Virus record (IMG/VR): IMGVR_UViG_3300021425_003021
Location: 32,001-96,000 of that record
Length of the DNA: 64,000 bases
Origin: a virus
Reading direction: 5' to 3' (one strand)
Position 1 is the stretch's first letter, and every line of letters starts with the position of its first letter. Position numbers and translations under genes: made by a program. Of the stretch, positions 18,390-60,625 are shown one piece after another. Under the pieces are notes generated by a model. The model worked only from the letters and a program-made list of their open reading frames with translations, did not search any database and was not told the DNA's origin.

Positions 18390-18418
18390 TTGACAATTAT
18401 CTAAATTTGTTATATACT
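18390..18418 (+). promoter_or_regulatory. Sigma70-type promoter TTGACA-17-TATACT
   Basis: TTGACA 18390-18395, 17-nt spacer, TATACT 18413-18418, exactly at the junction between the structural module and the enzyme island. Confidence 0.8.
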
Positions 18419-18444
18419 AGTGACTATTATATATGGAGATATCT

Positions 18445-18792
18445 ATGGACGAACGTCTTGAAAAAGCACTTGATATAAGCAATTACATGGTAACATTAAA
18501 CAATCAAACAAGATTGTTAAAAGAACAATATCAAGAAAATTTAATTCATTATTTCAACGGTGGACAATTTACAATTACGCAACAGTTGGTAAGTTTTTGT
18601 CAAAGTTTACTCACGTTACATCAGACGAATACAATTCTTATCGACGATAATGGTATACCTATTGAAATTGAAGAATTAGAAGAATTTACCACTGAAGTTG
18701 TTAGTAAATATTTTGAGGCTTCTAATAGATTTCTAATGGAATACAATAAATTAAAAGTAAATAGATCAGTTGAAAGTATTATGGATTTATGA
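18445..18792 (+). CDS. Hypothetical protein (first gene of glycosyltransferase operon)
   Basis: ORF with GGAG (18435-18438) placed for ATG 18445; overlaps the next gene. Confidence 0.6.
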   Translation: MDERLEKALDISNYMVTLNNQTRLLKEQYQENLIHYFNGGQFTITQQLVSFCQSLLTLHQTNTILIDDNGIPIEIEELEEFTTEVVSKYFEASNRFLMEYNKLKVNRSVESIMDL

Positions 18793-19616
18793 GCAAAGGT
18801 GTACTGTTATTTGCATTCAATAACGAAAGTATAAATTATATTAAACAAGCAATATTTTGTGCTAAACGTGTAAACAAATATTTAGGTTTACCTGTATCTT
18901 TGGTTACCGATGTTGAATTATCAGATAGTCAATCTAAACAGTTTGATAATATCATAAAAATTAAAAATTCTTTGTCAAACAAAAAAGCATATAGAGATGG
19001 ATCGTTAAGTAAAAGAGTTTTAAGTTTTAATAATTACGGTCGAGAATGTAGTTATGAACTGTCACCATATGACGAAACAATTGTTATGGATACTGACTAT
19101 ATTGTAGCAAATGACAAATTGTTAAATTGCTTTGCACAGCAAAAAGATCTTTTGCTATACAAAGATGCAACACATTTAGGAATATACAACGGAACACCGG
19201 AATTCAAATCAATAAGTGATGGCGGAGTTGATTTTTATTGGGCCACTGTAATTTATTTTAGAAAAAATAATATTACTGAAGCATATTTTAATTTGGTAAA
19301 ACATATAAAAGACAACTATATGCATTATAGAGGAGTTTACCAATTTAAAAATACGGTGTACAGGAATGATTTTGCTTTTAGTATTGCAGTTCACATTTTA
19401 TCAGGTTATACCAAAAATAACTTTGTTGGAGTCATTCCGGGTAAAAAGTTTTATACAATTGATAGAGATATTTTATTATCTATTAAAGATGACGAATTTA
19501 AAGTGTTGGTCGAAAAGCAAGACAGGCTTGGAGAATATACTCCAGTAAACTTTAAAGGTAGTAATTTACACGTAATGAATAAATTTAGTTTAGAAAGAGT
19601 TATTAATGAGCAATAA
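18789..19616 (+). CDS. GT-A fold nucleotide-diphospho-sugar transferase-like protein
   Basis: SPYDETIVMDTD (DxD motif), late H-x-x-x-K motif; paralog of the next ORF. Confidence 0.65.
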   Translation: MSKGVLLFAFNNESINYIKQAIFCAKRVNKYLGLPVSLVTDVELSDSQSKQFDNIIKIKNSLSNKKAYRDGSLSKRVLSFNNYGRECSYELSPYDETIVMDTDYIVANDKLLNCFAQQKDLLLYKDATHLGIYNGTPEFKSISDGGVDFYWATVIYFRKNNITEAYFNLVKHIKDNYMHYRGVYQFKNTVYRNDFAFSIAVHILSGYTKNNFVGVIPGKKFYTIDRDILLSIKDDEFKVLVEKQDRLGEYTPVNFKGSNLHVMNKFSLERVINEQ

Positions 19617-20448
19617 TTTTACTATGTTGGCGCAAAATACAGATATTGATTACGTCCAACAAGCCTATGTAAATGCTATGAGTATACGTTCTACAAATGA
19701 CGATGTAAAAATTTGTTTAGTAACTAATGACAATGTTCCAGACAAATATAAACAAGTATTTGATGATATTGTGGAGATTCCTTGGGGAGATCATGCCAAA
19801 GAATCAGATTGGAAAATTGAAAATAGATGGAAAATTTATCACGCAACTCCGTATGACGAAACAGTTGTAATGGATACGGATATGTTGGTATTACAGGATA
19901 TAAGTAGTTGGTTTGATTTTTTAAGAAATTATGATTTGTTTTTTACAAGTAATGTGTATACATATAGAAACGAATTAGTTACCAATAATTATTACAGACA
20001 TAGTTTTGTAAAAAACACTTTACCTAGTTTGTACAGTGGATTTCATTATTTTAAAAAATCAGATATTCCTCACGAATTTTATTCATGGTTAGAAATGATT
20101 ACAAACAATTGGCAAAAATTTTATAGACAACACGCAGGCGGAAGATTATATCAAAAAAAATGCAGTATAGATTTATCTGCTGCAATATCTATAAAAATTA
20201 TGAACGTAGAAAATCAAGTGACAAATCCAAGAGTTAAATATCCAAGTTTTGTGCATATGAAACCAAGAATACAAAACTGGACTAACAGTGTTGTTGACAG
20301 ATGGCAAGATCGTGTAGGAACATATTTAGGCGAAGACCTGCAACTAAAAATAGGAAATTTTACACAGAATGGAATATTTCATTATACGGAAGATGATTTT
20401 GTGTCTGACAGAATAATTAAAATTTATGAAAAGCATTTAGGAATATGA
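19606..20448 (+). CDS. GT-A fold nucleotide-diphospho-sugar transferase-like protein
   Basis: TPYDETVVMDTD (DxD), YSGFHYF, FVHMK, FHY; GT8-like layout. Confidence 0.65.
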   Translation: MSNNFTMLAQNTDIDYVQQAYVNAMSIRSTNDDVKICLVTNDNVPDKYKQVFDDIVEIPWGDHAKESDWKIENRWKIYHATPYDETVVMDTDMLVLQDISSWFDFLRNYDLFFTSNVYTYRNELVTNNYYRHSFVKNTLPSLYSGFHYFKKSDIPHEFYSWLEMITNNWQKFYRQHAGGRLYQKKCSIDLSAAISIKIMNVENQVTNPRVKYPSFVHMKPRIQNWTNSVVDRWQDRVGTYLGEDLQLKIGNFTQNGIFHYTEDDFVSDRIIKIYEKHLGI

Positions 20449-21005
20449 TAAAAGTAACACTTAACACTGATAGATATATTTGTTTTGATGAAAATGGCGA
20501 TATTGATAAAATTGCTCGCAAACCAGATGAAAACTTTGAAAATCTTTTAGTAGATTTTGAAGAAGTACGGAAGTTTGCTGAAGGAAAAGAAACATTACGT
20601 GACTATAAAGTTGAATATGATTTTATAGAAAAAAAATATGTGTTTAAAAGTAAACAACAATATCATGATAGTTTTAACACACAAAACTTTGTGTATGAAA
20701 TACCTCAAGATCAAGAATCTTTTGAAGTAAAAATTAAACAAAACAATATCGATAAATGTTGGGAACTAGAACTAGACAACGAGTTTGAAAATTACATCAA
20801 ATCACAAAATATTTCAATTAATCCTAGTCATCAAGTATACAGTGTAACAAAACTTTATGATCCGAATGTTTTGTATAAAACTTTAGACTTTACTAATAAA
20901 AATAAAATACCTTTTGATAGTAAGTTTGAATTTGACAAAGTTAATGTTAGCCTTTATACTATAAGAAAGTTTTCTACATATTATCATGAGGTTGTAAATG
21001 GCTAA
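20445..21005 (+). CDS. Hypothetical protein
   Basis: 186 aa ORF translationally coupled on both sides; no recognised motif. Confidence 0.6.
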   Translation: MIKVTLNTDRYICFDENGDIDKIARKPDENFENLLVDFEEVRKFAEGKETLRDYKVEYDFIEKKYVFKSKQQYHDSFNTQNFVYEIPQDQESFEVKIKQNNIDKCWELELDNEFENYIKSQNISINPSHQVYSVTKLYDPNVLYKTLDFTNKNKIPFDSKFEFDKVNVSLYTIRKFSTYYHEVVNG

Positions 21006-21912
21006 TACATTCCGTGTTATTGACTATGATATTGTATATCTTAGTTATGACGAACCAAACGCAGAAAAAAATTACGCAGATCTGTGTAAAAAAGTTCCTT
21101 GGGCAAAGCGTGTACACGGTGTAGAAGGTAGTGACAGCGCACATAAAGCCTGTGCTGAACTGAGCGAAACTGACAGATTTATCACAGTTGATGGCGATAA
21201 TTGCATACGTGATGACTTTTTATCACAGTCGATAAATTTTGAGGAAAATTTAGATTTAACAGATAAAGTGATTAGTTGGACTGCAATGAATCAAATTAAT
21301 GGCCTAACATACGGAAACGGTGGCATTAAATGCTGGCCTAAAGAATACGTGTTGAATATGCGTACACACGAAAATGCTCCAGTAGACAATCCACACGCAC
21401 AAGTAGACTTTTGTTGGAACACCGAATACGTACAAATGGAAGGTACTTTTAGTGATATTTATAACAATGCTACTCCGCATCAAGCGTGGCGTGCTGGTTT
21501 CCGCGAAGGTGTTAAAATGGCACTAGACAGAGGCGAGCGTGTAAGCATCGAAGACTTTAATAAAAATCATTGGAAGAACCTGCATCGTTTGTATATCTGG
21601 TTAATGGTAGGTGCTGATGTAGAAAACGGACGCTGGGCAATACACGGTGCAAGAGAAGGTTTATACAAAACAATGTGTACAGACTGGGACTTTGTTAACG
21701 TAAGAGATTTTGAATGGTTAAACAATTATTGGGATAATAAAGATATTGCTGATATTGACGAACAAACAGAAGATCTAGGAGATAAGTTAATAAATGAATT
21801 AAATCTGCCAATAGCAGTCGAATGTTTAAATGCTGATCAAAGTGCATTTTTTAAAAGTGTATATAGAAATCCAGTAAGAGATAACAGTAAACAATTTTTA
21901 GCTAGAGAGTAA
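20998..21912 (+). CDS. GT-A-like glycosyltransferase candidate
   Basis: YDIVYLSYDE...RVHGVEG...AH...VDGDN (DxD)...NGLTYGNGGIK...AWRAGFRE; homologous to the C-terminal domain of 25378..27321. Confidence 0.6.
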   Translation: MANTFRVIDYDIVYLSYDEPNAEKNYADLCKKVPWAKRVHGVEGSDSAHKACAELSETDRFITVDGDNCIRDDFLSQSINFEENLDLTDKVISWTAMNQINGLTYGNGGIKCWPKEYVLNMRTHENAPVDNPHAQVDFCWNTEYVQMEGTFSDIYNNATPHQAWRAGFREGVKMALDRGERVSIEDFNKNHWKNLHRLYIWLMVGADVENGRWAIHGAREGLYKTMCTDWDFVNVRDFEWLNNYWDNKDIADIDEQTEDLGDKLINELNLPIAVECLNADQSAFFKSVYRNPVRDNSKQFLARE

Positions 21913-21913: not shown

Positions 21914-23287
21914 ATGGAACGTAGCGAAAGCGAAGAAATTAAACGTATTGATACTATTACACAGGAAATATCTCCTACGTTTTGTTTTGCAAAGTGGTAT
22001 CACGCAAATATATATTTTCAAACAGGCGAAACACATAGTTGTTATCATCCTGCACCGCACAAGATTGATACAGCACCCTTGTTAGAAAACCCAAGTGCTA
22101 TACATAATACAGCACAAAAGAAACAAGAACGTGCTGCTATGATGCGTGGTGAACAACCTGCTGGTTGCAACTACTGCTGGAAAATTGAAGCAATGGGCAA
22201 AGATTATGTTAGTGATCGCAAACAACGTAATCAAACTATTTTCTTTAAACACAGATTGGCAGCAGTAAAAGAAGGCGGTGCAGAGTTTGACGTAAATCCA
22301 GAATACTTGGAAGTATCATTTGGCAACGAATGTAACTTTAGATGCGGATATTGTCATCCAAAAGCCAGTAGTAGATATTATCAAGAAATTAAACAGCATG
22401 GTCCGTACACAAACGTAAAAAATCATAGATGCGATATTGACTGGTTTCAAATATTTGAAGAAGAAAACAATCCTTATTTAGATGCATTTTGGCGTTGGTG
22501 GCCTGAGCTTAGTAAAGAGCTACACATACTGCGTATTACAGGCGGTGAGCCTACAATACAAAAAAGTACATACAAACTGTTTGATATGTTGGACGCAGAT
22601 CCAAAGCCAGAACTAGAATTAAACTGTAATAGTAACTTAGGTGGCAAACCAAAGCAGTTGGAAAAGTTTACTAATCGTGTAAATGACTTGTTAACAAACA
22701 ATAAGATTAGACGCTTTAAAATGTTTACAAGTATTGATACTTGGGGTAAACGTGCAGAATATATCCGTGATGGATTAGACATTGAAACTTTTGAACGCAA
22801 TTTGGATTACTTTATGCGTAATTGCGAAGCACCTATGGTGTTGATGATTACATTTAATATTTTTAGTGTTACAACATTCCGTACATTGTTAGAAAAAATC
22901 TTAGAATGGCGTGCCAAGTACAATGATGTAGAAACACATAGATGGCAGCGTTTGGGTTTTGATACACCACACCTTAAAGAGCCGCTACAATACGATATGA
23001 ATATTCTTCCAAAAGAATATATGAGTTATATGCACGATCACTTACAGTTTATAAAAGAAAACGTAGATGATAATCGCAAAGATGCATTCAGCACTATTGA
23101 GTATGAAAAGTTTAGACGTGTTGTTGATTATATGGAAACTACAGAATATCCATTAGAAAAAGTAATCCAAGGTAGGCAAGATTTTCACAACTTTTTTGCA
23201 GAACAAGGCCGCCGTCGTGGAGTTAATCACGAAGAAGTTTTTCCTGAAATGACAGATTTTTTTGATTTATGTAAAAAATATGTTTGA
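21914..23287 (+). CDS. Radical SAM protein with N-terminal twitch-like Fe-S domain
   Basis: CNFRCGYC, TGGEP; N-terminal FCFAKW...SCYH...GCNYC. Confidence 0.9.
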   Translation: MERSESEEIKRIDTITQEISPTFCFAKWYHANIYFQTGETHSCYHPAPHKIDTAPLLENPSAIHNTAQKKQERAAMMRGEQPAGCNYCWKIEAMGKDYVSDRKQRNQTIFFKHRLAAVKEGGAEFDVNPEYLEVSFGNECNFRCGYCHPKASSRYYQEIKQHGPYTNVKNHRCDIDWFQIFEEENNPYLDAFWRWWPELSKELHILRITGGEPTIQKSTYKLFDMLDADPKPELELNCNSNLGGKPKQLEKFTNRVNDLLTNNKIRRFKMFTSIDTWGKRAEYIRDGLDIETFERNLDYFMRNCEAPMVLMITFNIFSVTTFRTLLEKILEWRAKYNDVETHRWQRLGFDTPHLKEPLQYDMNILPKEYMSYMHDHLQFIKENVDDNRKDAFSTIEYEKFRRVVDYMETTEYPLEKVIQGRQDFHNFFAEQGRRRGVNHEEVFPEMTDFFDLCKKYV

Positions 23288-23873
23288 ATTAAAATTATAC
23301 AATAACGATATAGATTTATCTGATTTTTACAAAGAAGCAGAAAAGAAAAAATTTTACAATAATAGTAGTCAAGAAATGCTTATCGATTACATCAGTAAAT
23401 ATGAAGATGCTAAACTATGGTTATTATTATATGATAAAAAGGTAGTAGGCACTGTTGTTGCACACAGGTTGCGTGAATTAGGAATACTAGGAAAAGATGC
23501 ATATAGAATAGGTGCTAGGACCTGTGTCCTCACTCATTTAATCGGCAAACAAAGAGTAAAGAGTTTAAAAGGAAAAACTGATATTCATTATTCTCACGCA
23601 TCTCAATTTTTATTACCTGCTTGTATTGAAGGCGTTGGCAAAGACAAACCTTTATATCTTAGTACACATACAGGAAATATAGGTAGCCAAAATAAAGTGC
23701 ATAATTTTTGGGCAAAACATTTTCATATTGCAGGAGTGCTCGAAAATCCTATAGAACTCGAATACAGGGGCAGTTTTCAAACATTTTGGAAAGTTAATGT
23801 TGACAAATTTTATGAGACATTAAGACTATCTAGATGGTCTGAAGCAGAAGATGTTATACCAATTTTAGTTTAA
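23280..23873 (+). CDS. GNAT-like acyltransferase candidate
   Basis: LWLLLYDKKVVGTVVAH...YRIGARTCVL beta-strand pattern resembles GNAT; similar layout to 56244..56903. ATG 23280 preferred over TTG 23262. Confidence 0.4.
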   Translation: MFELKLYNNDIDLSDFYKEAEKKKFYNNSSQEMLIDYISKYEDAKLWLLLYDKKVVGTVVAHRLRELGILGKDAYRIGARTCVLTHLIGKQRVKSLKGKTDIHYSHASQFLLPACIEGVGKDKPLYLSTHTGNIGSQNKVHNFWAKHFHIAGVLENPIELEYRGSFQTFWKVNVDKFYETLRLSRWSEAEDVIPILV

Positions 23874-25310
23874 ATTTACCCAGTTACTACCGTCATAACC
23901 TTGGAATTTTCTTGTAGAAGTGTTAAAAATAATCATTCCTTCTTCGGCAGAAACGTCGGTTAAATCTGCTTCGGTATGTCCTTTTGCTTTAAATATAGGA
24001 ACAGATAATACGCCTGCACCGTTGAAATTTAAGCCTGTTGGATTATCCCAAAATGCACTAGGTAGGTTTCTGCCGTCGCTTAGAGTAATTGCAAAGTCTG
24101 TTGGATAAATTTCTAAATCTGGATCTGGTTCAATTTCTGTATTAGCATAGAATCCCATACCGCCACCAATCTTATATGCAATACCGTCATATGCGTGAGT
24201 AGTAAATACTGCCATATGATCGCCAGGATTAAGAGGTAGTTTATTTTCGTGATCGCCGTTAAATGCAAAATAATTAATCTGTCCAAGATTTGATGTGTTA
24301 ACCGGATTTGATTGTAATTTAAAACTTATGTTATCTGCATAAACTTCTAGTGTTTCGGTTGCATTGTATCCAATATTAATTTCACCAGTTGCACCACCTT
24401 CTAATCTTACCTGACCTTCGTTTACAGTCAGCACAGGTTGGTCTTCACCGGCAAACACTTCGCCTATTACGTTACCCATAAATGTTGCAAGTACACTAGG
24501 TTTGTCTGTGCCTTCCCATCTAGATAGTTCTAGTACAGGTGTGGCATCAAAATATTCAATGTTTCCTCTGAAACTTGTTTCTTGGTCATTGTTTGTAAAT
24601 TTTAGTATAGGTGCATGAGAATCTGGATGTTCTATACCTGATCTAAACACGTGATGTTCTAGTGTTTCATTCCAAGTAAGCACAGGTTCGTTATTGTCTG
24701 GTCTAACTATACTACCTTTTAAATCGCCGTGTAAAACACCGCTACTACCTTCTAAAATCATATCGCCATTTTCGGTGACAATATCTCCTGTTAAATTACC
24801 AACAACATTGCCTTGTACATTTCCTAAATGTAATCCTGTACTGTTACCAGTCAGATCTCCTGCAAAACTACCTGTGATAGTTCCTACTAAGTTTACTTCG
24901 CCGTTGTGTGTACCATACACATCACCTACAATTCGATCTACAATTAGTGTGCTTGTTCCTGCATCGTAAATTATGTCACCTACACTGTTTACAATATTGC
25001 CTTCTAAATTGCCTTTTAATAAACTACGATTTACATCTACTATTACATTGTTATTAGTGTCCTTAACATTACCTACAACATCCATATGTACTGTTCTACT
25101 ATCAGAATTGAACAAAATGTCGCCTTCGTCGTTTTCAATATTACCTATAAGTGGCCCGTATAGCTTTCCAAATGTAGTATCAACTTGAATAACACCATCT
25201 CTGTTTACAACATTTGCTTTAATTTGGCTAAGCCAACTATCTATAATAAGTGTGCTATCAGCACCAACAATATCAATGCGATACGAATCACCTGGTATAA
25301 AATCAGTCAT
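23865..25310 (-). CDS. Virion structural/fibre-like protein, inverted within the enzyme island
   Basis: Repeated G-(D/N)-(L/V)-x-G motifs; C-terminal EGMIIFNTSTRKFQGYDGSNWVNL shared with 62570..64000; has its own late box and AGGAG SD. Confidence 0.65.
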   Translation of the reverse strand: MTDFIPGDSYRIDIVGADSTLIIDSWLSQIKANVVNRDGVIQVDTTFGKLYGPLIGNIENDEGDILFNSDSRTVHMDVVGNVKDTNNNVIVDVNRSLLKGNLEGNIVNSVGDIIYDAGTSTLIVDRIVGDVYGTHNGEVNLVGTITGSFAGDLTGNSTGLHLGNVQGNVVGNLTGDIVTENGDMILEGSSGVLHGDLKGSIVRPDNNEPVLTWNETLEHHVFRSGIEHPDSHAPILKFTNNDQETSFRGNIEYFDATPVLELSRWEGTDKPSVLATFMGNVIGEVFAGEDQPVLTVNEGQVRLEGGATGEINIGYNATETLEVYADNISFKLQSNPVNTSNLGQINYFAFNGDHENKLPLNPGDHMAVFTTHAYDGIAYKIGGGMGFYANTEIEPDPDLEIYPTDFAITLSDGRNLPSAFWDNPTGLNFNGAGVLSVPIFKAKGHTEADLTDVSAEEGMIIFNTSTRKFQGYDGSNWVNLN

Positions 25311-25342: not shown

Positions 25343-25371
25343 TTGACATAACTGCTAGTATTTAGTATAAT
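25343..25371 (+). promoter_or_regulatory. Perfect sigma70 promoter TTGACA-17-TATAAT, leaderless
   Basis: TTGACA 25343-25348, TATAAT 25366-25371, ATG 6 nt later at 25378, no SD. Confidence 0.9.
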
Positions 25372-28354: not shown

Positions 28355-28565
28355 TTTAACTTTGAGAGAAATGCAAAAAGAAAGTGCTAGAGCGTTGAGT
28401 ACTATGCAAGCAACCAACAACAACATTTGGCAATTTAATAAAAAAGCTCATCACAATAGTCAAAAATGGTATCTTGCCGTAATCGAATGGTACATAGAAC
28501 AATATGGTGATTTACCTAGTAAAGCAGGTCCTGGCAAGGATGTTGAATTAGTTTATGATAGATAA
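28341..28565 (+). CDS. Small hypothetical protein
   Basis: 74 aa, fills the gap and overlaps both neighbours. Confidence 0.6.
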   Translation: MDLSNLTLREMQKESARALSTMQATNNNIWQFNKKAHHNSQKWYLAVIEWYIEQYGDLPSKAGPGKDVELVYDR

Positions 28566-43690: not shown

Positions 43691-43695
43691 TGTAA

Positions 43696-43702: not shown

Positions 43703-43724
43703 CAATTGTATACAGGAGATTACC

Positions 43725-49390: not shown

Positions 49391-49407
49391 CATTTAGGAG
49401 GTGTAAT

Positions 49408-50058: not shown

Positions 50059-50061
50059 TGT

Positions 50062-52180: not shown

Positions 52181-52740
52181 AAATTTTAACCACAGGTAAT
52201 CCTAATTATGGATTAGCAAGTGCTATAAAAAATACCAGTTATGCAAGTAGGTCTAATGGGTACGATTTATCAACTGATCAAGGAATGATAAAATTTTGTC
52301 ACGTTGCAATTCACTATGATGTAATAATACTAAATTGTTACACAGAAAAAATGAATAATTATAGTCAAGTTAGATTATTACATATGTTGTATGAATTATT
52401 TGAAGCTAGTAAAAAGACTGTACACTTTATATGTATTGGAAGTATAAGTGATCATTTAAACAAAGATCAACCTTGGTTAAAATATATTAGCTATGGTGCC
52501 GAAAAATTAGCATTACAACGATTGTGCGAAACTATAAATCATAACAGAGAAGAAATCACACCAAATATAAAATGTACATATGTAAGTTTAGGACATATGC
52601 ATACTCCTTTAGTAGACAGATATCATCCTGAAGAAATAAAATTAAATACAGAATACGTTGCAGACGTTATAGAATGGATTATCGATGCGCCAGAATGTAT
52701 TGAAAGTATCACCTTAACAAAGGATAAAACCAATGGATGA
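52177..52740 (+). CDS. Short SDR-family oxidoreductase
   Basis: TTGN..YGLA, DVIILN, ICIGS, YGAEK. Confidence 0.75.
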   Translation: MKILTTGNPNYGLASAIKNTSYASRSNGYDLSTDQGMIKFCHVAIHYDVIILNCYTEKMNNYSQVRLLHMLYELFEASKKTVHFICIGSISDHLNKDQPWLKYISYGAEKLALQRLCETINHNREEITPNIKCTYVSLGHMHTPLVDRYHPEEIKLNTEYVADVIEWIIDAPECIESITLTKDKTNG

Positions 52741-53494
52741 TTATATTGTTACTGTTGATATCGAATACAATAAAGAATATTTATTTGAGTGTTGTCAAAG
52801 CATCAAGCATTGGCCTTTGTACTCAAATGACAGAGGTAAAACTTTATTCAGTGAACACAAAGATGTAGTATTTCCTTTAAACGTAGAAGCAATTAAAATA
52901 AAAAATAAATTATTACATACAAGCACATATAGTTTTAGTTATATACCGCCAGGACACGAAACAGGATGGCACAGTGACTTTACTAGAGGTGCTACATTAA
53001 TTTTTCCAATAGATCCTAACCCGCATTTGATAAAATTCAAAATTGGCAGTAAAGAAGTAGATTACTATTACAGCACACCAGTTATAACAAATGCTGATAG
53101 TATACATAACGGTGTAAATTATACCAACGAACCTAGATACAATTTGTTGTTTCATATTGATAGACCTTATGCAGAAATAATAGATATAATTAATAATAAT
53201 GATTTAATATCTAAATGGAAACAAGATTACAACATTGGACAACATTATGATAATGATATGGTACACAAGTTTTTTGACACCCACAGTGATTTAGGCAATG
53301 CTGCTATAATTATTACTGACAACGTTTATATTGCAGATACGCATAAGGACAAATTTGTAATTTTTATTGGCAATAATGAAAATTACACTTGTATCGATTT
53401 AAAACAAAATGTCAAAGATAAAGATATTGTAAATGCAATAAAATATATTTTAGATAGCACTTGTAATATTAAAAAAATGGTATTAGGAATATGA
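52733..53494 (+). CDS. 2OG oxygenase-like cupin with C-terminal extra domain
   Basis: WHSD...IHNGVN...RYNL in the first ~150 aa; ~90 aa extension. Confidence 0.65.
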   Translation: MDDYIVTVDIEYNKEYLFECCQSIKHWPLYSNDRGKTLFSEHKDVVFPLNVEAIKIKNKLLHTSTYSFSYIPPGHETGWHSDFTRGATLIFPIDPNPHLIKFKIGSKEVDYYYSTPVITNADSIHNGVNYTNEPRYNLLFHIDRPYAEIIDIINNNDLISKWKQDYNIGQHYDNDMVHKFFDTHSDLGNAAIIITDNVYIADTHKDKFVIFIGNNENYTCIDLKQNVKDKDIVNAIKYILDSTCNIKKMVLGI

Positions 53495-54033
53495 ACAATT
53501 ATATTTTCTTAAAAGATTTATATATCGATCATAATGAGATTAAAAATGTTGTTGATGACAAATCTGGATGGATTGAAATTGCACCTGAAGAGGAAAACAG
53601 AGGCTATGTACAATATTATAAACAATATGAACCCCAATGGTTAAAAGATCAATTATTACCAATCTGGAGTTATATGGGATTATTGATTGCCTGTAGAGCA
53701 GGGGAGTATTTGCCTCCTCACGTTGACAATGGCAGAGCTTGTGGAATTTTAATTCCTTGCAGTGAAAGTTATCAAGATAACACACTTGATTTTTGGCATA
53801 TGCCAGACTGGGAAGGGGCTGAAGGCGATTGGCAAGATTGGAAACAAAAACATAATGGTCATATTGTTGAAAGTGTAATTTATAAAGATCCTATTCTGTT
53901 TAAAAATATTCCTCACGGAGTAGATAACAGAAATAGCAAACATCCTAGAATAAATTTAAGTGTATGTTTTATGCCTCCTTACAACTTTGATGTAGTAAAA
54001 GATTTATATGATAAAGGAATCTTAATTGTATAA
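53491..54033 (+). CDS. 2OG-Fe(II) oxygenase-like cupin
   Basis: PPHVD.GR...LIP...PHGVDN...RINL. Confidence 0.7.
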   Translation: MNNYIFLKDLYIDHNEIKNVVDDKSGWIEIAPEEENRGYVQYYKQYEPQWLKDQLLPIWSYMGLLIACRAGEYLPPHVDNGRACGILIPCSESYQDNTLDFWHMPDWEGAEGDWQDWKQKHNGHIVESVIYKDPILFKNIPHGVDNRNSKHPRINLSVCFMPPYNFDVVKDLYDKGILIV

Positions 54034-54784
54034 ATTATTAAATGGTCCTCTTGCTGAAAATGATAATCGCTGCTTACTTCCTGAATTTCTAAGTATTCAA
54101 GAAAAAACTGATTATGAAAAAAATAAAAAACAATTAGGACCACAATGGCATTATTATGACAAGGAGCTTTCTTATAAATTAAATTCTAACTTTTATAGAG
54201 ATGATGAATGGAATAACATAGATTGGAAAGAATCTATTGTAGTTTTTGGTTGTAGCCATGTATTTGGAGAAGGATTACCCGTTGAAGAAACTATTTGTCG
54301 CCAATTGCAAAATATAGTAGAAAGACCTGTAATAAATCTTGGACAAAGTGGAACTAGCACTATCTTTAGTTGGCATAATAGTATCAGGCTTTTTGAAAAT
54401 TTTGGTATTCCGCATACTGTTATACAATTATGGACAGATTACGGTAGATTATTATATTACACTGATGATAAAATTAATCGTTTAGGATCTTGGTCTGGCA
54501 GTCATTGGGATAATTACAACAATGATATGAAAGCTTTATATAAAATATGGAATAAAAATCTTGTTCATTCGCAACAATTTTTTAAATTTGAAGCATTAGC
54601 TTGTGAAAACTTTTGGAGCTCTAAAACAAATTATTATCAAGCAAGTTATTTTGAAGAAACTGCAAATCTTTTACATTGTGACTTTTTTCCTAAATTAGAC
54701 GTTGCAAGAGATTTTATACATTTTGGAAAATTGACACACAAAAATGCAGCAAAGGTTATAAATGAAAATTGCAATTTACGGTGA
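54026..54784 (+). CDS. SGNH-like protein
   Basis: VFGCSHVFG, INLG.SG, C-terminal ARDFIH (DxxH). Confidence 0.65.
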   Translation: MYKLLNGPLAENDNRCLLPEFLSIQEKTDYEKNKKQLGPQWHYYDKELSYKLNSNFYRDDEWNNIDWKESIVVFGCSHVFGEGLPVEETICRQLQNIVERPVINLGQSGTSTIFSWHNSIRLFENFGIPHTVIQLWTDYGRLLYYTDDKINRLGSWSGSHWDNYNNDMKALYKIWNKNLVHSQQFFKFEALACENFWSSKTNYYQASYFEETANLLHCDFFPKLDVARDFIHFGKLTHKNAAKVINENCNLR

Positions 54785-55445
54785 TAGTTTTGGTGCTAAT
54801 CCAATAGGGGTAAAAGATTATTCGTTGTATCCTTATATTGGAAAAAGTTGGTGGGAATTGCTTTCTGAAAAATATGACATAACAAACTTTTGTGAATGGA
54901 GTGCTAGTCTTTTATTTTCTGCAGAACAGTTTACAAGAACACACGAGAAATTTGATAAAGTTATTTTTTTAGTAACACATCCTAGAAGAATAACAATAAA
55001 AGATAATAACAATAATAGACACTTTGTAAATTATGAGTACAGCACATTTTGGAAAGAAGATGCTGAAAAACAAGGATGGAATGATGTATTAAATGCTGCT
55101 TTATATTATTACAAGTATATCGAAAATTCTAACTATTCAAATTTTCAACACATTGCATATCTTAATTACATAAAAAATTTACGTAAAGATGTTTTGTATA
55201 TTCCTAGTTTTAAAGACAGTTTTGATAATAATTTTTGTTTGTGTGATGTTTTTGACAAAGAACAAAAATATTGGAAAATTGATTATGACGTAGGAAAACT
55301 AGATGTAAGAAAAGGACACTTTACAACCCCAAACCATAAAATTATGTATAACATATTGGATAATTACATAGAATATAATAAATTTGACATAGACTTGTCT
55401 ATGTTTGTTGATCCTGATTTGCCTAAAAGAAAGTATATAAAATGA
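54762..55445 (+). CDS. SGNH-like protein
   Basis: IAIYGDSF, SW..LL, C-terminal R.GH...NH. Confidence 0.6.
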   Translation: MKIAIYGDSFGANPIGVKDYSLYPYIGKSWWELLSEKYDITNFCEWSASLLFSAEQFTRTHEKFDKVIFLVTHPRRITIKDNNNNRHFVNYEYSTFWKEDAEKQGWNDVLNAALYYYKYIENSNYSNFQHIAYLNYIKNLRKDVLYIPSFKDSFDNNFCLCDVFDKEQKYWKIDYDVGKLDVRKGHFTTPNHKIMYNILDNYIEYNKFDIDLSMFVDPDLPKRKYIK

Positions 55446-56278
55446 CTGTCTACAGTTTTTGTCCTAAACCAATAAAAGACGAATTAAAAAAAATTAATCT
55501 TATTAACAAAGGATCTAGTACAGACATTTCTTTATATAAAAAACATTGGATATCTTGGATAAAAAATTTTAGTGGCTGCGAAAATAAAAAAGAATGGGCA
55601 ATGTGTAATGGTATACACGAAGCACTAACGCATCAATGTGCTCATGTACACAGTAAATATGATCAATTTTATTATTTTGATACAGATTATAAATTTTATT
55701 ACAGTATACTAGATCCATATAAGAATTATTGTATATCTCCAACTGATATAGATAATATTTTGCCAAATAGTTACATATTGGTAAGTCAACCAAATCACGA
55801 AGGCGGCATTACTGATTGGTTTGATGATTTAATAAATCATTGTTTAACTAATAATTGTAAAATATTTTTAGATTGTGCTTTTTATGGATGCACACTTGAT
55901 ACTTTAGATACTAGTTTATGTGTATTTGATGCTGTTGCATTTAGTTTAAGCAAAAATTTTTTAATGGCAGGTTTTAGAGCAGGTATTATATTTTCTGATA
56001 GCTTACCACAAACTCTAACTTTACCTATAGGGCAATACTATAGTTACAATTATTTTAACACAACAGCATCAGAAGTTGTAAAAACAATACTTCCTAAGTT
56101 TCATGCAACATATATTACAGAAATAGCAAAACCCTTACAAGAAAAATATTGTAATGAAAACAATTTAGTACCTGCTGATATTTGGATGTGGGCTTTTAAC
56201 AGTGAAGGTGAAAAAATTTGTATAACAGACTATATTGAGGATTCTATAGAACAGCAGCTCTTACTGAATCGTCTATAG
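55442..56278 (+). CDS. PLP-dependent aminotransferase-like (fold type I) enzyme, compact
   Basis: NG..E, S.P, LDCAFY, FSLSK.F...GFRAG (PLP lysine). Confidence 0.75.
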   Translation: MTVYSFCPKPIKDELKKINLINKGSSTDISLYKKHWISWIKNFSGCENKKEWAMCNGIHEALTHQCAHVHSKYDQFYYFDTDYKFYYSILDPYKNYCISPTDIDNILPNSYILVSQPNHEGGITDWFDDLINHCLTNNCKIFLDCAFYGCTLDTLDTSLCVFDAVAFSLSKNFLMAGFRAGIIFSDSLPQTLTLPIGQYYSYNYFNTTASEVVKTILPKFHATYITEIAKPLQEKYCNENNLVPADIWMWAFNSEGEKICITDYIEDSIEQQLLLNRL

Positions 56279-56903
56279 TGCCATTGTGCATAAAATACAA
56301 AATAGTTTTGTAGTCTGGTCGCCATACATAATTTTCATCTAGTATGTTTGCATACACATATTGTAAAAAATCAGATTTTTCACTGACTTTAAAAATCATA
56401 TCCGGCTGTAATTTAAATGCACGGTAAGTATCGGTCATAAAATATGGAACAGATTCGCCTCGCATACCCATACGTTTTTTACCTTGATACATTGCATTAA
56501 GTGCTTTGTTATCAACATTATGTGTCCAATACAGTACTTTAAGTCCATTGTCTTTTGCCCATTGTACCTGGTTGGGCAACATTCTAAAACCGGCATTACT
56601 ATGTCTAAACTTTTTTAAAATATGATATCTACAAATACGTCCTGCAATTTCTGGGTCTCCTGTATAATGACTACGTTCAACTACACTTACACTTGCAAGT
56701 TCTTCTCCTACAAATGTCATCCAAGTTTGCCCGTCTACTGTATCAGGATCGTATTTGTCACCAGCAAGTGCTTCGTTGCCTTCGCGTTTAGCCAGCATTC
56801 TAAATTTTTCAATTAAATCTCTATTAGATGGATTGTATTCTCTAACACTTATGTTTTCGTACACTTTGATTTCCAAGTTTGCATCTGTTTCTACATTTGA
56901 CAT
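56244..56903 (-). CDS. GNAT family N-acyltransferase
   Basis: RICRYHILKKFRH..AG...WAK.NG...N.ALNAMY GNAT motif A/B pattern. Confidence 0.65.
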   Translation of the reverse strand: MSNVETDANLEIKVYENISVREYNPSNRDLIEKFRMLAKREGNEALAGDKYDPDTVDGQTWMTFVGEELASVSVVERSHYTGDPEIAGRICRYHILKKFRHSNAGFRMLPNQVQWAKDNGLKVLYWTHNVDNKALNAMYQGKKRMGMRGESVPYFMTDTYRAFKLQPDMIFKVSEKSDFLQYVYANILDENYVWRPDYKTILYFMHNGTIDDSVRAAVL

Positions 56904-56948: not shown

Positions 56949-58010
56949 ATGAATTATCCTATACCTGATACTATATTAGCCGATGGTTTAAGTTATAACC
57001 GAGATTGGCTAGACAGTTTGGAATTTTTAAAAAAATATGTTTGTAAATCTATTAATGATTTTTGGGAACACCAAGGAGATATCTTTTGTGAATTATCATC
57101 CTGCGAATTAAAAAAAGTTAAAGAAACAAAGTTAATTTTAGATTGCAGTTGGATTAGTTTTGGCATAGAAAAAATGTATGAACTAATTCATAACGATTGT
57201 ATAAAATATGAAGTGCCTGAAGTTAATATTGTACTTTTAACAGCGAACTTAAACAAAGAATACGAAAATTATAATAATTGGTTTTCAAATAGTATGTATA
57301 AAAACAAAATAAAAACTTTTCCATTTCCTGTTTTTATTCAAATGGCTCAATCTATTAATAGCAGTGTAGTTGTATCGAATGTAAAATATAATAAATTTGC
57401 AACATTTAGTAGATTTCCAAGAGAGCATCGTAATGTTATGAACTATGAACTAGTTTCTAAACAATATCCGGTAGATATGAGTCAATCTAAAATTAACGAT
57501 GAGATTATGCAACAACAATGTAAAAAATACAATGTAAACTACACACATAATGTTCTCGATAAAGATTTTGTAATGGATAAAACAGATTTTGCAAATCATC
57601 ATGAAGCAATAAAATGGACAGAAAGTTCGAGTAATTTTTTATCCGACTATAAATTTATTTTAGTACAAGATACTAGTATTGACGACTTTGGTTTTTATAT
57701 AACAGAAAAGGTATGGAAAAGTATGTTGTATGAGCGTCCTATAATAATTTGGGGACAACCTGGTGTAAATCACTATTTAAAAGAAATGGGATTTAAATTA
57801 TACAATAAATATTTTGATTTAAATTTTGATATTGAAAAAGACCACAGTGTTAGATTGCAACTGCTACTTAAAGAACTAAAAAATGCAAGTAAAAAAATGA
57901 AACAACCAGACTGGATTAATTTAGATACAGACACATTACAATATAATAAAGAATATTTGTTATCTAAAAAATCATTGGACAAATGGATCAAACCGTTAAA
58001 ATTCATTTAA
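56949..58010 (+). CDS. GT10-like/GT-B candidate, paralog family of 28555..29634
   Basis: R.PR.HR, FYITEKVWK, P.II.G.PG...L...GF. Confidence 0.45.
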   Translation: MNYPIPDTILADGLSYNRDWLDSLEFLKKYVCKSINDFWEHQGDIFCELSSCELKKVKETKLILDCSWISFGIEKMYELIHNDCIKYEVPEVNIVLLTANLNKEYENYNNWFSNSMYKNKIKTFPFPVFIQMAQSINSSVVVSNVKYNKFATFSRFPREHRNVMNYELVSKQYPVDMSQSKINDEIMQQQCKKYNVNYTHNVLDKDFVMDKTDFANHHEAIKWTESSSNFLSDYKFILVQDTSIDDFGFYITEKVWKSMLYERPIIIWGQPGVNHYLKEMGFKLYNKYFDLNFDIEKDHSVRLQLLLKELKNASKKMKQPDWINLDTDTLQYNKEYLLSKKSLDKWIKPLKFI

Positions 58011-58634
58011 GTAGTAATTGTACCCTTTCCAAGTACCTATATCAATCATTTTCCCCAATGGCCTAGTTTGGAAATGTTGTTCGTTAAGCCAATCACCTAT
58101 TTCTTTTGTTATTTTATTTTTTAAAGATGTATTTGTGAATTTAATGGTTCCCCAAACAAGATGACTGTTTGCCTGTGTTTTTACAGTCTTAACATTAAAC
58201 TGCCCATTGGGCAAGAGTCTATCTCCTTTTATTTCTTCAGGAATACTATATACTCCACACACCACCTCATCTTTGATAAGTAAATCTTTATAATGTGTTG
58301 CAGTAGTAACAGTATCAGGTAAGCAAAAAATATAATCTTTAGCAGGAAAACTTTGAACTACATCATTAATAAATCTATTGCCGCCATCGCTAGGACCTTT
58401 TTGTTCTAATAAATGACAAAAAAGATCGTTTTGATAATATGCAAGTATGTCCTGTTTGTAGGTACAGCCATGTCCAAAAATAATTTTGTCTACACCTGTA
58501 TTAATTAAATTTTGAACACAGTGATTTATAATAGGATTATAATAATCAAACCCTTTTTGAGGAAGCATTGATTTACTAAACGGAATGTTTAACCTTGTTG
58601 AATTTCCACCGACTGGTACTAAACCTATAATCAT
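57996..58634 (-). CDS. Sugar-phosphate nucleotidyltransferase-like (NTP transferase)
   Basis: PVGGNSTRL...SK.MLP, LPD, C-terminal DIGT. Confidence 0.75.
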   Translation of the reverse strand: MIIGLVPVGGNSTRLNIPFSKSMLPQKGFDYYNPIINHCVQNLINTGVDKIIFGHGCTYKQDILAYYQNDLFCHLLEQKGPSDGGNRFINDVVQSFPAKDYIFCLPDTVTTATHYKDLLIKDEVVCGVYSIPEEIKGDRLLPNGQFNVKTVKTQANSHLVWGTIKFTNTSLKNKITKEIGDWLNEQHFQTRPLGKMIDIGTWKGYNYYLNEF

Positions 58635-59242
58635 AAATTTTCTAAATCGTCTATTCCGTCTAAACTAAACATTAATGCAATACGAGGTTTGTCGCTATTG
58701 TTGTACACAGCGTGTGGATAGCCTATGTTTAAGAAATATGCCTTGCCTGCTTCTAATACATATTCTTCTTCTTTACCATCTCGTCTAAACTTGTTAATAA
58801 CCATATCGTCGCTGTAGATAGGGCATATGCAGCGCACAGCGTACCCTACATCGTAGTCTACATGAAACGGTATCTCTTTACCTGGAGCAAGTTTGGTAAT
58901 GCGTACACGACTTGCAGGCGCTTTACACTGCTCTACAACGGTTCTAATATAACTGTACTTGTAATCATCAGTTGGCACATTATACAAGTGTTCTTCTCTG
59001 CGCTGTAGTCGTTTTTTGATACTTGGTTCATACGGAAGTATTTCACTTGGTTCTGTCAAATTAATTTGTTCAAAATTATCGTAAACACTAGCAACCAGTT
59101 CCATATGATTGTCACACAGCATAGGATTAGCACTTCGAACATCGATAAATTTTTCTGCTAATCTATCGCATTCCATTTGCAAACGAGGCAAATCTATATC
59201 TAAACCTAAATCTGCTATTGTCGGTAATTCATGTTTCTTCAT
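58631..59242 (-). CDS. Asp/Asn beta-hydroxylase-like 2OG oxygenase
   Basis: RVRITKLAPG...FHVD...HAVYN...RIAL; AGGAG SD supports start 59242. Confidence 0.8.
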   Translation of the reverse strand: MKKHELPTIADLGLDIDLPRLQMECDRLAEKFIDVRSANPMLCDNHMELVASVYDNFEQINLTEPSEILPYEPSIKKRLQRREEHLYNVPTDDYKYSYIRTVVEQCKAPASRVRITKLAPGKEIPFHVDYDVGYAVRCICPIYSDDMVINKFRRDGKEEEYVLEAGKAYFLNIGYPHAVYNNSDKPRIALMFSLDGIDDLENL

Positions 59243-59993
59243 TGTACACTCCTGCAAGACATATTCTTGCTGTTTCTCCATCACGCATAAATTTTGCGTA
59301 TTCTTTGTCTTTAGTTGTAGCAAGCCAAACACTGTCACTTGGCACAAAGTTCAATTGCTCACAAAATGTTTTTTGTTTATTATATAACTTATTATGAACA
59401 TAGTCAATATCAAAATTACTTATTACAGTTTCTGCTATGTTATGTGCATAGTAGTTATAATATTTTGCACTATGCGTTAATGATTCTAAACGTTCGTCTG
59501 GAGATTTTGTAAATATCCAACCTGTGCGGACATTGCGTAAACCGAACGCTTTTGACAAACTAAAGAAAGCATACTCAACATTACCAAAATTGTGTATATA
59601 TTGTATCTTAGTGCTTCCAACATATGCTAAATCTAGTGCCACAGGATCTAAAATTGGCAATTCTCTAAAATTTCCGTTAATTGCACTAGGGATGCTCACA
59701 TATACTATCTTGCCACATCGATCGGTTGGTTTAATCCACTGATAATCACCTACATCCATATAGACGCTTCTATACTCATTGTTGTACCACCAGTTTAAAC
59801 CCTCTGTACATCCATTCATAGGATATACATTATATCCTTCTAAATTAATAATAGGACGTAGCCATTTAATTATATCTGTTTTGTAAGGGGTAATACTGTG
59901 CAAATCTAGATCAACTGAACGCACAACTTTTTCTACTTCTGGTAGTACTGGAGTTCTAATTGCTAAACTTTGTTTAAGTAAAAAATCTTTCAA
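59229..59993 (-). CDS. PLP-dependent aminotransferase-like enzyme, compact
   Basis: NG.TE, PS.I.G, LDLAY, FSLSKAFG...RTG. Confidence 0.75.
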   Translation of the reverse strand: MKDFLLKQSLAIRTPVLPEVEKVVRSVDLDLHSITPYKTDIIKWLRPIINLEGYNVYPMNGCTEGLNWWYNNEYRSVYMDVGDYQWIKPTDRCGKIVYVSIPSAINGNFRELPILDPVALDLAYVGSTKIQYIHNFGNVEYAFFSLSKAFGLRNVRTGWIFTKSPDERLESLTHSAKYYNYYAHNIAETVISNFDIDYVHNKLYNKQKTFCEQLNFVPSDSVWLATTKDKEYAKFMRDGETARICLAGVYNEET

Positions 59994-60591
59994 TAACTAC
60001 TCCTGCTATATCATACTTGTGTAATTTATATGATTGTGGTTGTTGATGATGCTTTAAGTGCCATCCTTCTCCTGGTGCAATTAAATTTAACAACGGAACA
60101 TTTTGTGGTTCGCCGTCTTTGTGTGCAAAATAATTTAACATTCCGAAGCCTGTCCAAGACAAAACAAATGGAACAAAAACAATTACAAAAAATAATTTAA
60201 TGTCTATAATAATTGTTACAAGTGCAATCAATAGATGTAGATACTTGCCATTTTTATGGAACCATACTATTCTTGGATTTTTTAACAAATTAGAAATATA
60301 CTTGCGAGGTATATAATCCACTGTCCAATTACTCGTTAAAACTTTCCAAGCACCTTGATACTTAGGACTATGAGGATCTAACAAAGTATCTGATTTTGCG
60401 TGATGCATACGGTGAACAGCAGCCCAGGTTAATGCACTACGACCACCGCAGATAAGTCCTAACAATAACATAATTACTTCTACAATACTATTGGTTTTAA
60501 AAGTGTTGTGTGTAAAATATCTATGATAACCAATACTTATGCCTATTAAAGCCGCAAAGAAATACCATAGATATCCGTATATAAAAATCAT
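59974..60591 (-). CDS. Membrane fatty-acid desaturase (delta-9 acyl-CoA/acyl-lipid type)
   Basis: Three His boxes HRYFTH, HRMHH (followed by DPHSP), GEGWHLKHH; hydrophobic segments. Confidence 0.9.
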   Translation of the reverse strand: MIFIYGYLWYFFAALIGISIGYHRYFTHNTFKTNSIVEVIMLLLGLICGGRSALTWAAVHRMHHAKSDTLLDPHSPKYQGAWKVLTSNWTVDYIPRKYISNLLKNPRIVWFHKNGKYLHLLIALVTIIIDIKLFFVIVFVPFVLSWTGFGMLNYFAHKDGEPQNVPLLNLIAPGEGWHLKHHQQPQSYKLHKYDIAGVVIERFFT

Positions 60592-60596
60592 AACAA

Positions 60597-60625
60597 ATTA
60601 TAACACTACTTTAATTATAAGTCAA
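60597..60625 (-). promoter_or_regulatory. Sigma70 promoter TTGACT-17-TATAAT with extended -10, leaderless
   Basis: Minus strand: TTGACT 60625-60620, 17 nt ending TGt, TATAAT 60602-60597, ATG 5 nt later at 60591. Confidence 0.85.

Follow-up and report, generated by a model that had tools for sequence, protein, structure and literature searches.

The stretch of viral DNA considered here, a window of 64,000 nucleotides (64 kb), spans bases 32001-96000 of a linear 105,490-bp virus record in IMG/VR (IMGVR_UViG_3300021425_003021; CheckV completeness 29%). At window positions 18390-60625 it contains a 42-kb island of genes for radical S-adenosylmethionine (rSAM) enzymes, glycosyltransferase candidates and other tailoring enzymes. 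Genes are referred to by their first window position and lie on the plus strand unless a minus sign follows. A first-pass annotation, made from the DNA letters, had described about 50 tightly coupled genes, with neither replication genes nor a nonribosomal peptide synthetase (NRPS) or polyketide synthase (PKS). The stretch indeed holds 51 open reading frames (ORFs) with almost no intergenic space, most of them overlapping by a few bases, and no NRPS, PKS or replication gene is present in it. The island is real, intact, conserved and widespread, and the stretch forms the enzyme-rich portion of a hypervariable island that is linked to tail fibres and has an analogue in the host recognition cluster (HRC) described in marine T4-like phages. 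To judge from its gene families, the chemistry that it encodes is most probably sugar-directed.

The genes around the island identify its carrier. Upstream of the window, the record encodes a T4-type major head protein (gp23), a portal, an SbcC-like gp46 and a gp6 baseplate wedge whose nearest relatives are found in the jumbo myoviruses Atu_ph07, Serratia phage BF and the Rak2 group (34-36% identity). The gp6 gene is followed by that of a giant virion structural protein of 4588 aa with a CBM5/12 domain. Its 3' 3332 codons fill window positions 1-9999, and its homologs in PA5oct- and Rak2-like jumbo phages are annotated as virion structural proteins. Six tail-fibre-module genes (10019, 10624 (tail collar), 12648, 14580, 16110 and 17301; 10019-18386), recognised by Pfam Collar and by PHROG tail fibre or collar matches, then lead up to the island, and paralogy reveals a common N-terminal domain in three of them. 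On the right, the island meets a subtilase of family S8 with a cupredoxin-like, tail-fibre-family C-terminal part (60626-62560(-)), and then a conserved 637-aa gene (62570-64000(-)) that marks this border in all relatives. The cupredoxin-like region of the S8 protein matches tail-fibre and baseplate-connector PHROG families, and the protein may be a virion-borne protease. Fibre-type genes had been proposed for both flanks and for one internal gene. The flanks bear this out, with collar and fibre genes on the left and the S8 protein with its fibre-like C-terminus on the right, but the internal gene (23865-25310(-)), which encodes a Cys-free, Gly/Asn-repeat protein of 481 aa and has a late-type box upstream, gives only a weak PHROG tail-fibre match. 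Its C-terminal 41 aa are shared with gene 62570(-). GC content is even over the whole window (0.28-0.39), no tRNA genes were found in it, and a megablast search of 15 kb against cultured phages gave no match. An uncultured jumbo myovirus from the sea, akin to the group of Rak2, PA5oct and Atu_ph07, carries the island.

The island recurs at the same place in related records, which reach at least 246 kb; five larger ones carry 10, 19, 14, 10 and 16 rSAM genes. In one relative (G001), the gene order follows that of the whole contig, at 62-95% amino-acid identity. Three others (G002-G004) are distant, with a gp6 only 33% identical, yet they hold an island in the identical position. There it follows fibre paralogs and the block 18433-GT8-GT8-GT-A-rSAM, and precedes a 62570-like gene, a DUF2201 metallopeptidase and a MoxR ATPase. 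Conserved flanks and a variable interior, foreseen earlier for a hypervariable island, are thus what G001-G004 display, and the identical arrangement in independent contigs excludes assembly chimerism. The phage origin of the island is secure. Through the variation between records runs a lasting skeleton of eight genes: 20998, 21914, 25378, 27308, 28341, 31855, 35268 and 45747. The DUF2201 metallopeptidase/VWA protein and the MoxR-type AAA ATPase also stay together as a pair on the island's right side in every relative; in the present contig they lie at 98005-100515 (66005-68515 in window numbering), beyond the window. In the 246-kb relative G002, a canonical thymidylate synthase gene (C1:207055-207906) directly follows the last island gene.

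Gene 35268, the most conserved of the island, has 153 relatives in IMG/VR, the best 80 of which are 82-93% identical to it, and 2148 homologs in a large protein database, mostly from marine samples. It is far more conserved than the structural genes, retaining 82-93% identity even where gp6 is only 33% identical, which would reflect either a strongly constrained substrate or recent gene exchange between phages. Five contigs with island genes at 55-86% identity to the phage (L125, L132, L153, L154 and L162) belong to metagenome-assembled genomes labelled Rickettsiales, Neisseriaceae, Arcticimaribacter, Crocinitomicaceae and Gammaproteobacteria, and are probably phage contigs mis-binned into bacterial genomes.

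The rSAM enzymes dominate the island. Ten had been counted earlier, and all ten carry the CxxxCxxC motif and match PF04055, seven above the gathering score and three below it. They represent three architectures: six members of NCBIfam NF033640 (N_Twi_rSAM), the pair 31855/34177 (class B) and the pair 39652/45747 (class C). The curated cut-off of NF033640 is a whole-protein score of 170 bits; the six score 300 (21914-23287), 244 (32928-34274(-)), 418 (35268-36671), 205 (37574-38845), 245 (41353-42573) and 363 (44395-45723), whereas the other four reach 24-46 bits and are not members. In the six proteins, an auxiliary twitch domain precedes the rSAM core, four cysteines before the core are invariant in a six-way alignment, and three of them have a SPASM Pfam match N-terminal to the core. 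Gene 21914, with the motif CNFRCGYC, always follows the GT-A gene and has an ortholog in a cultured Ralstonia phage (RsoM2USA_202, 35% identity); 37574 overlaps the next gene, which encodes a PP-loop enzyme; and 44395 is up to 52% identical to Bdellovibrionota proteins. The class B core gene 31855-32940 (CQAACPMC), which lacks an N-terminal twitch domain, is conserved in 77 loci, and its paralog 34177-35271 has a late-type box upstream. In class C, 39652-40830 has a viperin/MoaA-like core, while 45747-46868, a core gene, is 70-93% identical in relatives and 62-66% identical to Bdellovibrionota proteins; a single-sequence PDB search with 45747 returned nothing useful.

In a FastTree phylogeny of 139 N-twitch proteins, whose deep branches are unreliable, the six window paralogs are spread over six separate clades, all of which include phage orthologs and most of which include Bdellovibrionota proteins too. 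By this evidence the six are old, distinct enzymes common to phages and Bdellovibrionota, not recent duplicates. The family is catalogued only, and no paper was found that gives it a function. The enzymes nearest to the N-twitch profile are BlsE and two that use nucleotides, viperin and MoaA, a result that fits nucleotide-linked substrates.

Twitch rSAMs such as BtrN, and also BlsE, act in aminoglycoside or nucleoside antibiotic pathways. With BlsE among the N-twitch profile matches, the island might be thought to make a diffusible small molecule or cofactor during infection, for example a nucleoside- or aminoglycoside-like compound, that is attached to nothing, much as a cyanophage rSAM has been read as a small-molecule enzyme (PMC12801897). 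The multiple transferases of the island, the absence of any exporter or resistance gene, its linkage to the fibre module and an interior that differs between close relatives all weigh against such a product, which is considered highly improbable.

Two genes interleaved with the rSAM genes encode PP-loop ATPases (36631-37587 and 38808-39662). The family shares invariant residues S50, G51, G52, D54 and S55 in the PP-loop and C229, C258, C261 and C264 near the C-terminus, seen in 36631 as the motifs SGGADS and TRSC...CxxCxxC.ER. An AlphaFold model of 38808 (pLDDT 85.5) has QueC as its nearest structures (2pg3, Z 14.6; 3bl5, Z 14.5), then Cap9 (13.2) and QatC (12.4-12.6), ranking just above TilS, NcsA and LarE; a single-sequence PDB search with the same protein gave nothing useful. 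The first-pass annotation had called both enzymes QueC-like ATPases. The SGGADS motif, the four cysteines and the modelled fold agree with that name, but the QueC family profile PF06508 has no match at E <= 1 in the whole contig, and paralogs in related contigs give only partial, weak matches to it. Both enzymes are therefore best described as QueC-like by modelled structure and paralogy, not as members of the QueC family. In another phage contig, a 37574-type rSAM and a 38808-type PP-loop enzyme form a single 832-aa protein (L076:12547-15045), which argues that the two may work together. This is the sole true fusion; apparent fusions between 35268 orthologs and PP-loop enzymes were rejected as artefacts of an over-long ORF call at 36631.

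The resemblance to QueC raises the question of whether the island hypermodifies DNA, with bases glycosylated or converted to 7-deazaguanine types to escape restriction. A truncated GTP cyclohydrolase I (FolE) gene at the contig end (105226-105489, beyond the window) keeps this reading alive; more genes of deazaguanine or folate metabolism, if present, would be located past that end. The sigma70-type promoters described below would suit early genes, as the glucosyltransferase genes of T4 are, and hypervariability would suit an arms race. Against these points, no TGT/DpdA was found in six related, incomplete records, one of them up to 67% complete, and no QueC Pfam match exists in the contig. 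A single canonical thymidylate synthase is present in each of G002 and G003, without a second gene of hydroxymethylase-like type. Moreover, at least six transferases and ten rSAMs exceed any known DNA modification pathway, and the same core occurs in bacterial chromosomes, at some loci beside sugar-type genes. DNA hypermodification is thus the least probable of the alternatives weighed here.

The evidence for sugar chemistry is clearest in the transferases and the sugar-nucleotide genes. At the left end, two paralogous genes (18789-19616 and 19606-20448) encode GT8-like candidates of the GT-A type with a DxD motif. Their family profile (A5) matches glycogenin (E 3.6e-5 over ~100 residues) with D101 and D103 invariant, and neither protein has a Pfam match at E <= 0.01. 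Gene 20998-21912 encodes a further GT-A-fold candidate with a helical C-terminal domain. Its AlphaFold model (pLDDT 85) retrieves WrtF, RmlT, SunS and PBCV-1 A64R in Foldseek at prob 0.99 and aligns with GT-A transferases at VIA Z 9-10 over residues 4-157, with mimivirus R655 also among the structural matches. The 647-aa core protein 25378-27321 combines three ~110-aa repeats with a C-terminal domain paralogous to the GT-A protein 20998. A single-sequence PDB search with it gave nothing useful and the repeats matched nothing; a homolog adjoins rSAM genes in Bdellovibrionota. The next core genes, 27308 and 28341 (27308-28565), form a pair that also occurs in Bdellovibrionota loci. The 348-aa protein 27308 has three helical DLRKA..N.HS.FR repeats followed by a Rossmann-like C-terminal domain, for which methyltransferase is a lead only; neither PDB nor profile searches gave anything useful, and the repeats matched nothing. 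The conserved 74-aa protein encoded by the overlapping gene 28341 is likely to be a partner subunit of 27308.

Two paralogous transferase-like proteins are defined by a TEK motif (28555-29634, in a variable cassette, and 56949-58010). An ESM lead of 0.82 points to GT10, PF00852 has no match at E <= 1 (nor in control genomes), and a profile search with the 28555 family found no PDB match. Of the six glycosyltransferase candidates named earlier, the GT8-like pair is thus upheld by profile, and 20998 and the C-terminus of 25378 by model and paralogy, while the TEK pair stands on motif only. The variable cassette gene 29634-30725 encodes an NDP-sugar dehydrogenase of the UDP-glucose/GDP-mannose type, confirming by Pfam (PF03721, PF00984) the Ugd proposed before; its match to NCBIfam TIGR03026 (1e-41) falls below that model's cut-off. 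At the right end, a minus-strand operon (57996-60591(-)), assigned by Pfam or motif, comprises a putative NTP-transferase (57996), an AspH/cupin protein (58631), a PLP-like enzyme (59229) and a fatty-acid-desaturase-like protein (59974). The NTP-transferase is assigned by the motif GGNSTRL only, whereas the desaturase, like the dehydrogenase, is supported by a hidden Markov model (HMM).

The same gene families occur in bacterial chromosomes. When an alignment of three N-twitch paralogs was used to scan 185,579 species genomes, 203 cellular relatives were found, and the best 80, examined for taxonomy, are almost all from Bdellovibrionota, on contigs up to 3 Mb and in one isolate genome. A scan with 35268 alone found no relative among cellular genomes. 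NF033640 occurs in 19 of 101 sampled Bdellovibrionota genomes vs none of 14 control genomes, with 7-16 members per genome in the five Bdellovibrionota genomes checked. Among 69 Bdellovibrionota loci, the N-twitch rSAM has near it a class B rSAM in 39, a class C rSAM in 34, a GT2 transferase in 16, a PLP-like protein in 14, a 27308-like protein in 13, a short-chain dehydrogenase/reductase (SDR) in 10, a PP-loop enzyme in nine and a GT-A protein in nine. Ten neighbours sampled at three loci comprise, among others, two NAD epimerase/dehydratases, a GT2 transferase, an AsnB amidotransferase and a flavin amine-oxidase/NAD_binding_8-family enzyme, with Ugd-like genes alongside. In about a third of the loci with the shared core, genes for GT2, an epimerase, Ugd or AsnB lie alongside. 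Some of the chromosomes also line up as many as seven or eight N-twitch rSAM genes in tandem (L185:967-12559, L155 and others). Among culturable carriers, Bdellovibrio sp. HCB2-146 has seven copies, and Vibrio phage K566 has four N-twitch rSAM genes. Polytopic membrane proteins lie beside some of these rSAM genes; matches to PF01943 and PF04932, sought as signs of Wzx/Wzy identity, fall elsewhere in those genomes. No paper on Bdellovibrio rSAM clusters was found.

The rest of the island is rich in oxidative and group-transfer enzymes. A first cluster of redox genes includes a compact SDR with TGxxxGIA and YxxxK motifs and a weak adh_short match (40811-41365) and a nitroreductase-family flavoenzyme (43677-44375; PF00881). 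Between them, a 166-aa protein with a late-type box upstream and a 194-aa protein that is sulfotransferase-like by motif only (43106) occupy 42604-43690. An oxygenase-rich block at 46816-54033 contains 2-oxoglutarate (2OG)/TET-JBP-like proteins (46816, 50062), SDR-like proteins (47532, 52177), AspH-type proteins (48067, 48626, 50724, 52733), a second nitroreductase with a late-type box (49408), a SET-domain protein (51256) and two PHxD-motif proteins (51713, 53491). It is followed at 54026-56278 by two proteins that are SGNH-like by motif only (54026, 54762) and a short fold-I PLP enzyme with an SLSK motif (55442), and then by a GNAT acetyltransferase (56244-56903(-); PF00583). Nearer the left end, a 144-aa protein without assignment and a GDSL/SGNH hydrolase recognised by Pfam (31146-31862) share 30722-31862. 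A conserved 119-aa protein without a Pfam match (18433-18792) is the first island gene in all relatives, a 186-aa protein (20445-21005) has no family match in a Pfam scan, and a 203-aa protein (23262-23873), also without a Pfam match, is a candidate second GNAT.

The earlier counts of these enzymes fare unevenly. Two nitroreductases were proposed and both are recovered by HMM. Roughly ten 2OG/AspH proteins had been listed; five are AspH-type by HMM (48067, 48626, 50724, 52733 and 58631), two (46816/50062) are placed by a weak Tet_JBP match and paralogy, and two (51713 and 53491) are 2OG-like by the PHxD motif only. One of three SDRs has a weak Pfam match (40811) and the other two follow by paralogy (47532, 52177); likewise, one of two PLP enzymes has a weak Pfam match, and the other is a paralog with the SLSK motif. 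An HMM supports one of three SGNH proteins (31146) and one of two GNATs (56244(-)); the remaining SGNH pair, the sulfotransferase-like protein and the NTP-transferase stay at the level of motifs, and the second GNAT remains a candidate.

Several of these families belong more typically to the chemistry of proteins or peptides, and the rSAM, AspH, SET and nitroreductase proteins could in principle act directly on virion proteins or on a small peptide, as in ribosomally synthesised peptides that are modified post-translationally (RiPPs), with sugar not central. Enzymes of rSAM/SPASM, AspH, SET and nitroreductase types are common in peptide maturation, and the weak NCBIfam matches of the island rSAMs go to peptide maturases; the conserved 74-aa ORF and the S8 protease at the island border could likewise be seen in this light. 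However, the island lacks a precursor peptide, none of its proteins has an RRE or PqqD Pfam match, and there is no space for further small ORFs. The 74-aa protein, the sole small conserved ORF, is Cys-free and its gene overlaps 27308, and the S8 protein carries a fibre-family C-terminus. In addition, the rSAM families adjoin sugar-type genes in the sampled Bdellovibrionota loci, where tandem arrays of up to seven or eight rSAM paralogs are atypical of RiPP clusters. Direct peptide modification is accordingly judged improbable.

Promoter-like sequences place the island between two modes of expression. The motif ATAAATA occurs 11 times in the 64-kb window, and six copies sit 23-33 nt before gene starts vs 0.28 expected. 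Two of these precede fibre genes (10019, 14580) and four precede island genes (23865(-), 34177, 42604 and 49408). The strict T4 late box TATAAATA is depleted in the window, with two copies vs 14.5 expected, and the shorter ATAAATA is the real signal. Late-type boxes had been reported at many sub-operons; they are confirmed at four island genes, but the island edges and the two large operons that begin with 25378 and 45747 carry near-consensus sigma70-type sites instead. These sites are TTGACA-17-TATACT at the left edge (18390-18418), the consensus TTGACA-17-TATAAT directly before the start codon of 25378 (25343-25371), a consensus site before 45747 (45713-45741) and a minus-strand site at the right edge (60625). 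A further near-consensus site lies at 59407(-), and some sites end ~10 nt or less from the start codon, such that the mRNAs may be leaderless. With sigma70-type sites at the first operons and late-type boxes at later ones, the island would probably be expressed both early and late.

Nearly all of this enzymology appears to be soluble. Membrane segments are predicted in one island protein only, the desaturase-like 59974(-), and no Pfam families for a polyprenyl-phosphate initiating transferase, flippase or polymerase, as in a Wzx/Wzy-type locus, are found among the island proteins. These observations bear on whether the island remodels the host envelope, that is, whether its unusual sugars alter O-antigen, lipopolysaccharide or capsule through the lipid carrier and export systems of the host, thereby blocking superinfection or changing the cell surface. 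Relatives of AspH include the lipid A hydroxylase LpxO, the desaturase-like gene encodes a membrane protein, and the sigma70-type promoters suggest early expression. Some Bdellovibrionota core loci hold GT2, epimerase, Ugd and AsnB genes, as surface-polysaccharide loci do, and a host-surface role has been argued for GT8-rich clusters (Zaragoza-Solas et al. 2020; PMC7029224). However, with a single membrane protein and neither an initiating polyprenyl-phosphate transferase nor a flippase, polymerase or ligase found, the island lacks the usual components of such a pathway. It is also embedded in the fibre module and is partly driven by the late-type boxes of the fibre genes. Envelope remodelling is regarded as unlikely, although it is a serious competitor and deserves more weight than the alternatives discussed above.

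The favoured reading, given slightly better than even chances on the gene content, is that the island specifies a pathway in the cytoplasm by which nucleotide-activated sugars are built, then edited and finally transferred as an unusual glycan. A glycan-building and -editing pathway is the best explanation because the core adjoins sugar-type genes in about a third of the bacterial loci and because transferases and sugar-nucleotide enzymes accompany it in the phage. The NTP-transferase, NDP-sugar dehydrogenase, SDRs, PLP enzymes and acyl-, sulfo- and methyltransferases would make and decorate sugar nucleotides. The three rSAM classes would perform oxygen-independent C-H chemistry on the sugar or nucleotide-sugar, such as oxidation, epimerisation, deoxygenation or C-C bond formation. 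Each QueC-like PP-loop enzyme, together with an N-twitch rSAM, may adenylate a carboxylate, for example that of a uronic acid, and convert it to an amide or related group. The Fe/2OG enzymes would add hydroxyl groups, and the GT8-like, GT-A and TEK-type transferases would attach the products to a soluble acceptor. In the absence of a flippase, polymerase or initiating transferase in the island, that acceptor should be cytoplasmic. Since every island protein except one is soluble and nothing for export is encoded, the phage's own fibre or baseplate proteins would be the most likely acceptor; the position of the island and the late-type boxes that it shares with the fibre genes make virion fibres the most economical guess.

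Several findings weigh against this glycan pathway. A BLAST-detectable sugar marker lies within 10 kb in only 20 of the 69 Bdellovibrionota loci. The NTP-transferase, the SGNH proteins, the sulfotransferase-like protein and the TEK family are assigned by motif only, and the AspH, SET and nitroreductase families are, as noted, more at home in protein or peptide chemistry. The first operons carry sigma70-type promoters, as early genes would. Finally, no Ser/Thr-rich tracts, EGF-like Asp/Asn-hydroxylation sites or collagen repeats were found in the fibre and giant proteins. The earlier proposal, a pathway making unusual sugars or adducts for virion proteins or the host envelope, is thus retained in part: sugar chemistry is the best supported, through the transferases, the NDP-sugar dehydrogenase and those Bdellovibrionota loci where homologous cassettes have sugar-type genes next to them, and virion proteins are a putative site of attachment.

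A bolder proposal can be put forward tentatively, and is considered rather doubtful. The N-twitch rSAMs, the QueC-like ATPases coupled or fused to them and the GT-A/27308 core may constitute an undescribed system in which oxygen-independent radical editing of a sugar is followed by ATP-dependent amidation. By this means, abundant marine jumbo phages would give their tail fibres a hypervariable glycan coat, and whole cassettes would have been exchanged with predatory Bdellovibrionota. Such a coat would be a virus-encoded, rapidly diversifying layer with which the phage tunes host recognition or conceals the fibre. Should the favoured reading hold, a very abundant group of ocean phages would devote more than one tenth of its genome to uncharacterised radical chemistry, and the island would be a candidate case of a tailed phage making a glycan, complex and quick to evolve, for its own particle or the surface of its host. 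With 10-19 rSAMs per locus, including six ancient subfamilies of a family without a known reaction, these islands would then be a rich and directly testable source of new enzymology. The link to Bdellovibrionota supplies culturable organisms in which function can be tested, and it suggests that phages and predatory bacteria may have exchanged genes.

Comparison with known systems begins with the enzymes. Six island proteins resemble NF033640 members in score (205-418 bits), in the CxxxCxxC core and in a four-Cys N-terminal domain. They also resemble BtrN, DesII, AprD4 and BlsE, which conduct radical chemistry on sugar or nucleoside-sugar substrates with the help of an auxiliary Fe-S cluster; BlsE is itself among the N-twitch profile matches. 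In contrast to those enzymes, whose auxiliary domain is C-terminal, that of the island proteins is N-terminal, and the similarity is confined to the rSAM core without family membership. The PP-loop enzymes share with QueC, Cap9 and QatC the SGGxDS PP-loop, a C-terminal four-Cys site and the best structural matches. They differ from QueC in an extra N-terminus of ~40 residues, in their coupling or fusion to rSAM enzymes, in lacking a PF06508 match and in having no TGT/DpdA partner among the records searched.

At the level of pathways, the island recalls the virus-encoded glycosylation machineries represented by chlorovirus PBCV-1 A64R and the fibril sugar clusters of mimivirus, in which soluble transferases of the GT-A type, together with sugar-nucleotide enzymes, modify virion proteins in the cytoplasm. 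Attachment to the virion is a property of those systems but only a candidate outcome here. Machineries of these kinds, those of mycobacteriophages included, are not known to contain rSAM or PP-loop enzymes. Among tailed phages, virion glycosylation in mycobacteriophages is reported by Freeman et al. 2023, as cited in PMC12801897.

Among phage gene clusters, a T4-like marine genome with 12 rSAM genes has been mentioned in passing (PMC5332604), and a paper on moraphages (PMC12619734) was considered as a match and set aside because it describes another lineage. The fullest counterpart is the HRC of pelagimyophages and cyanomyophages (Zaragoza-Solas et al. 2020; PMC7029224), which contains fibres, GT8, Ugd and swappable rSAM cassettes and lies between VrlC and the neck gene gp14 in phages of 132-164 kb. 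In that study, the glycosyltransferases of pelagimyophage HRCs are read as modifying the host O-chain, and the rSAM cassettes are given no function. The present phage belongs to a different lineage (Atu_ph07, Rak2, PA5oct-like jumbo phages) with relatives of at least 246 kb. Its giant protein is not detectably VrlC, having homologs among jumbo-phage virion proteins; gp14 was not identified; and the rSAM content, at 10-19 genes, is far higher. Both, however, are large, non-syntenic islands in the structural module, beside a giant baseplate-associated protein and tail fibres, with conserved flanks and a variable interior. Both also combine GT8-type transferases, UDP-glucose dehydrogenase and AspH-type genes with swappable rSAM cassettes. 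The HRC of marine T4-like phages is the closest published kind.

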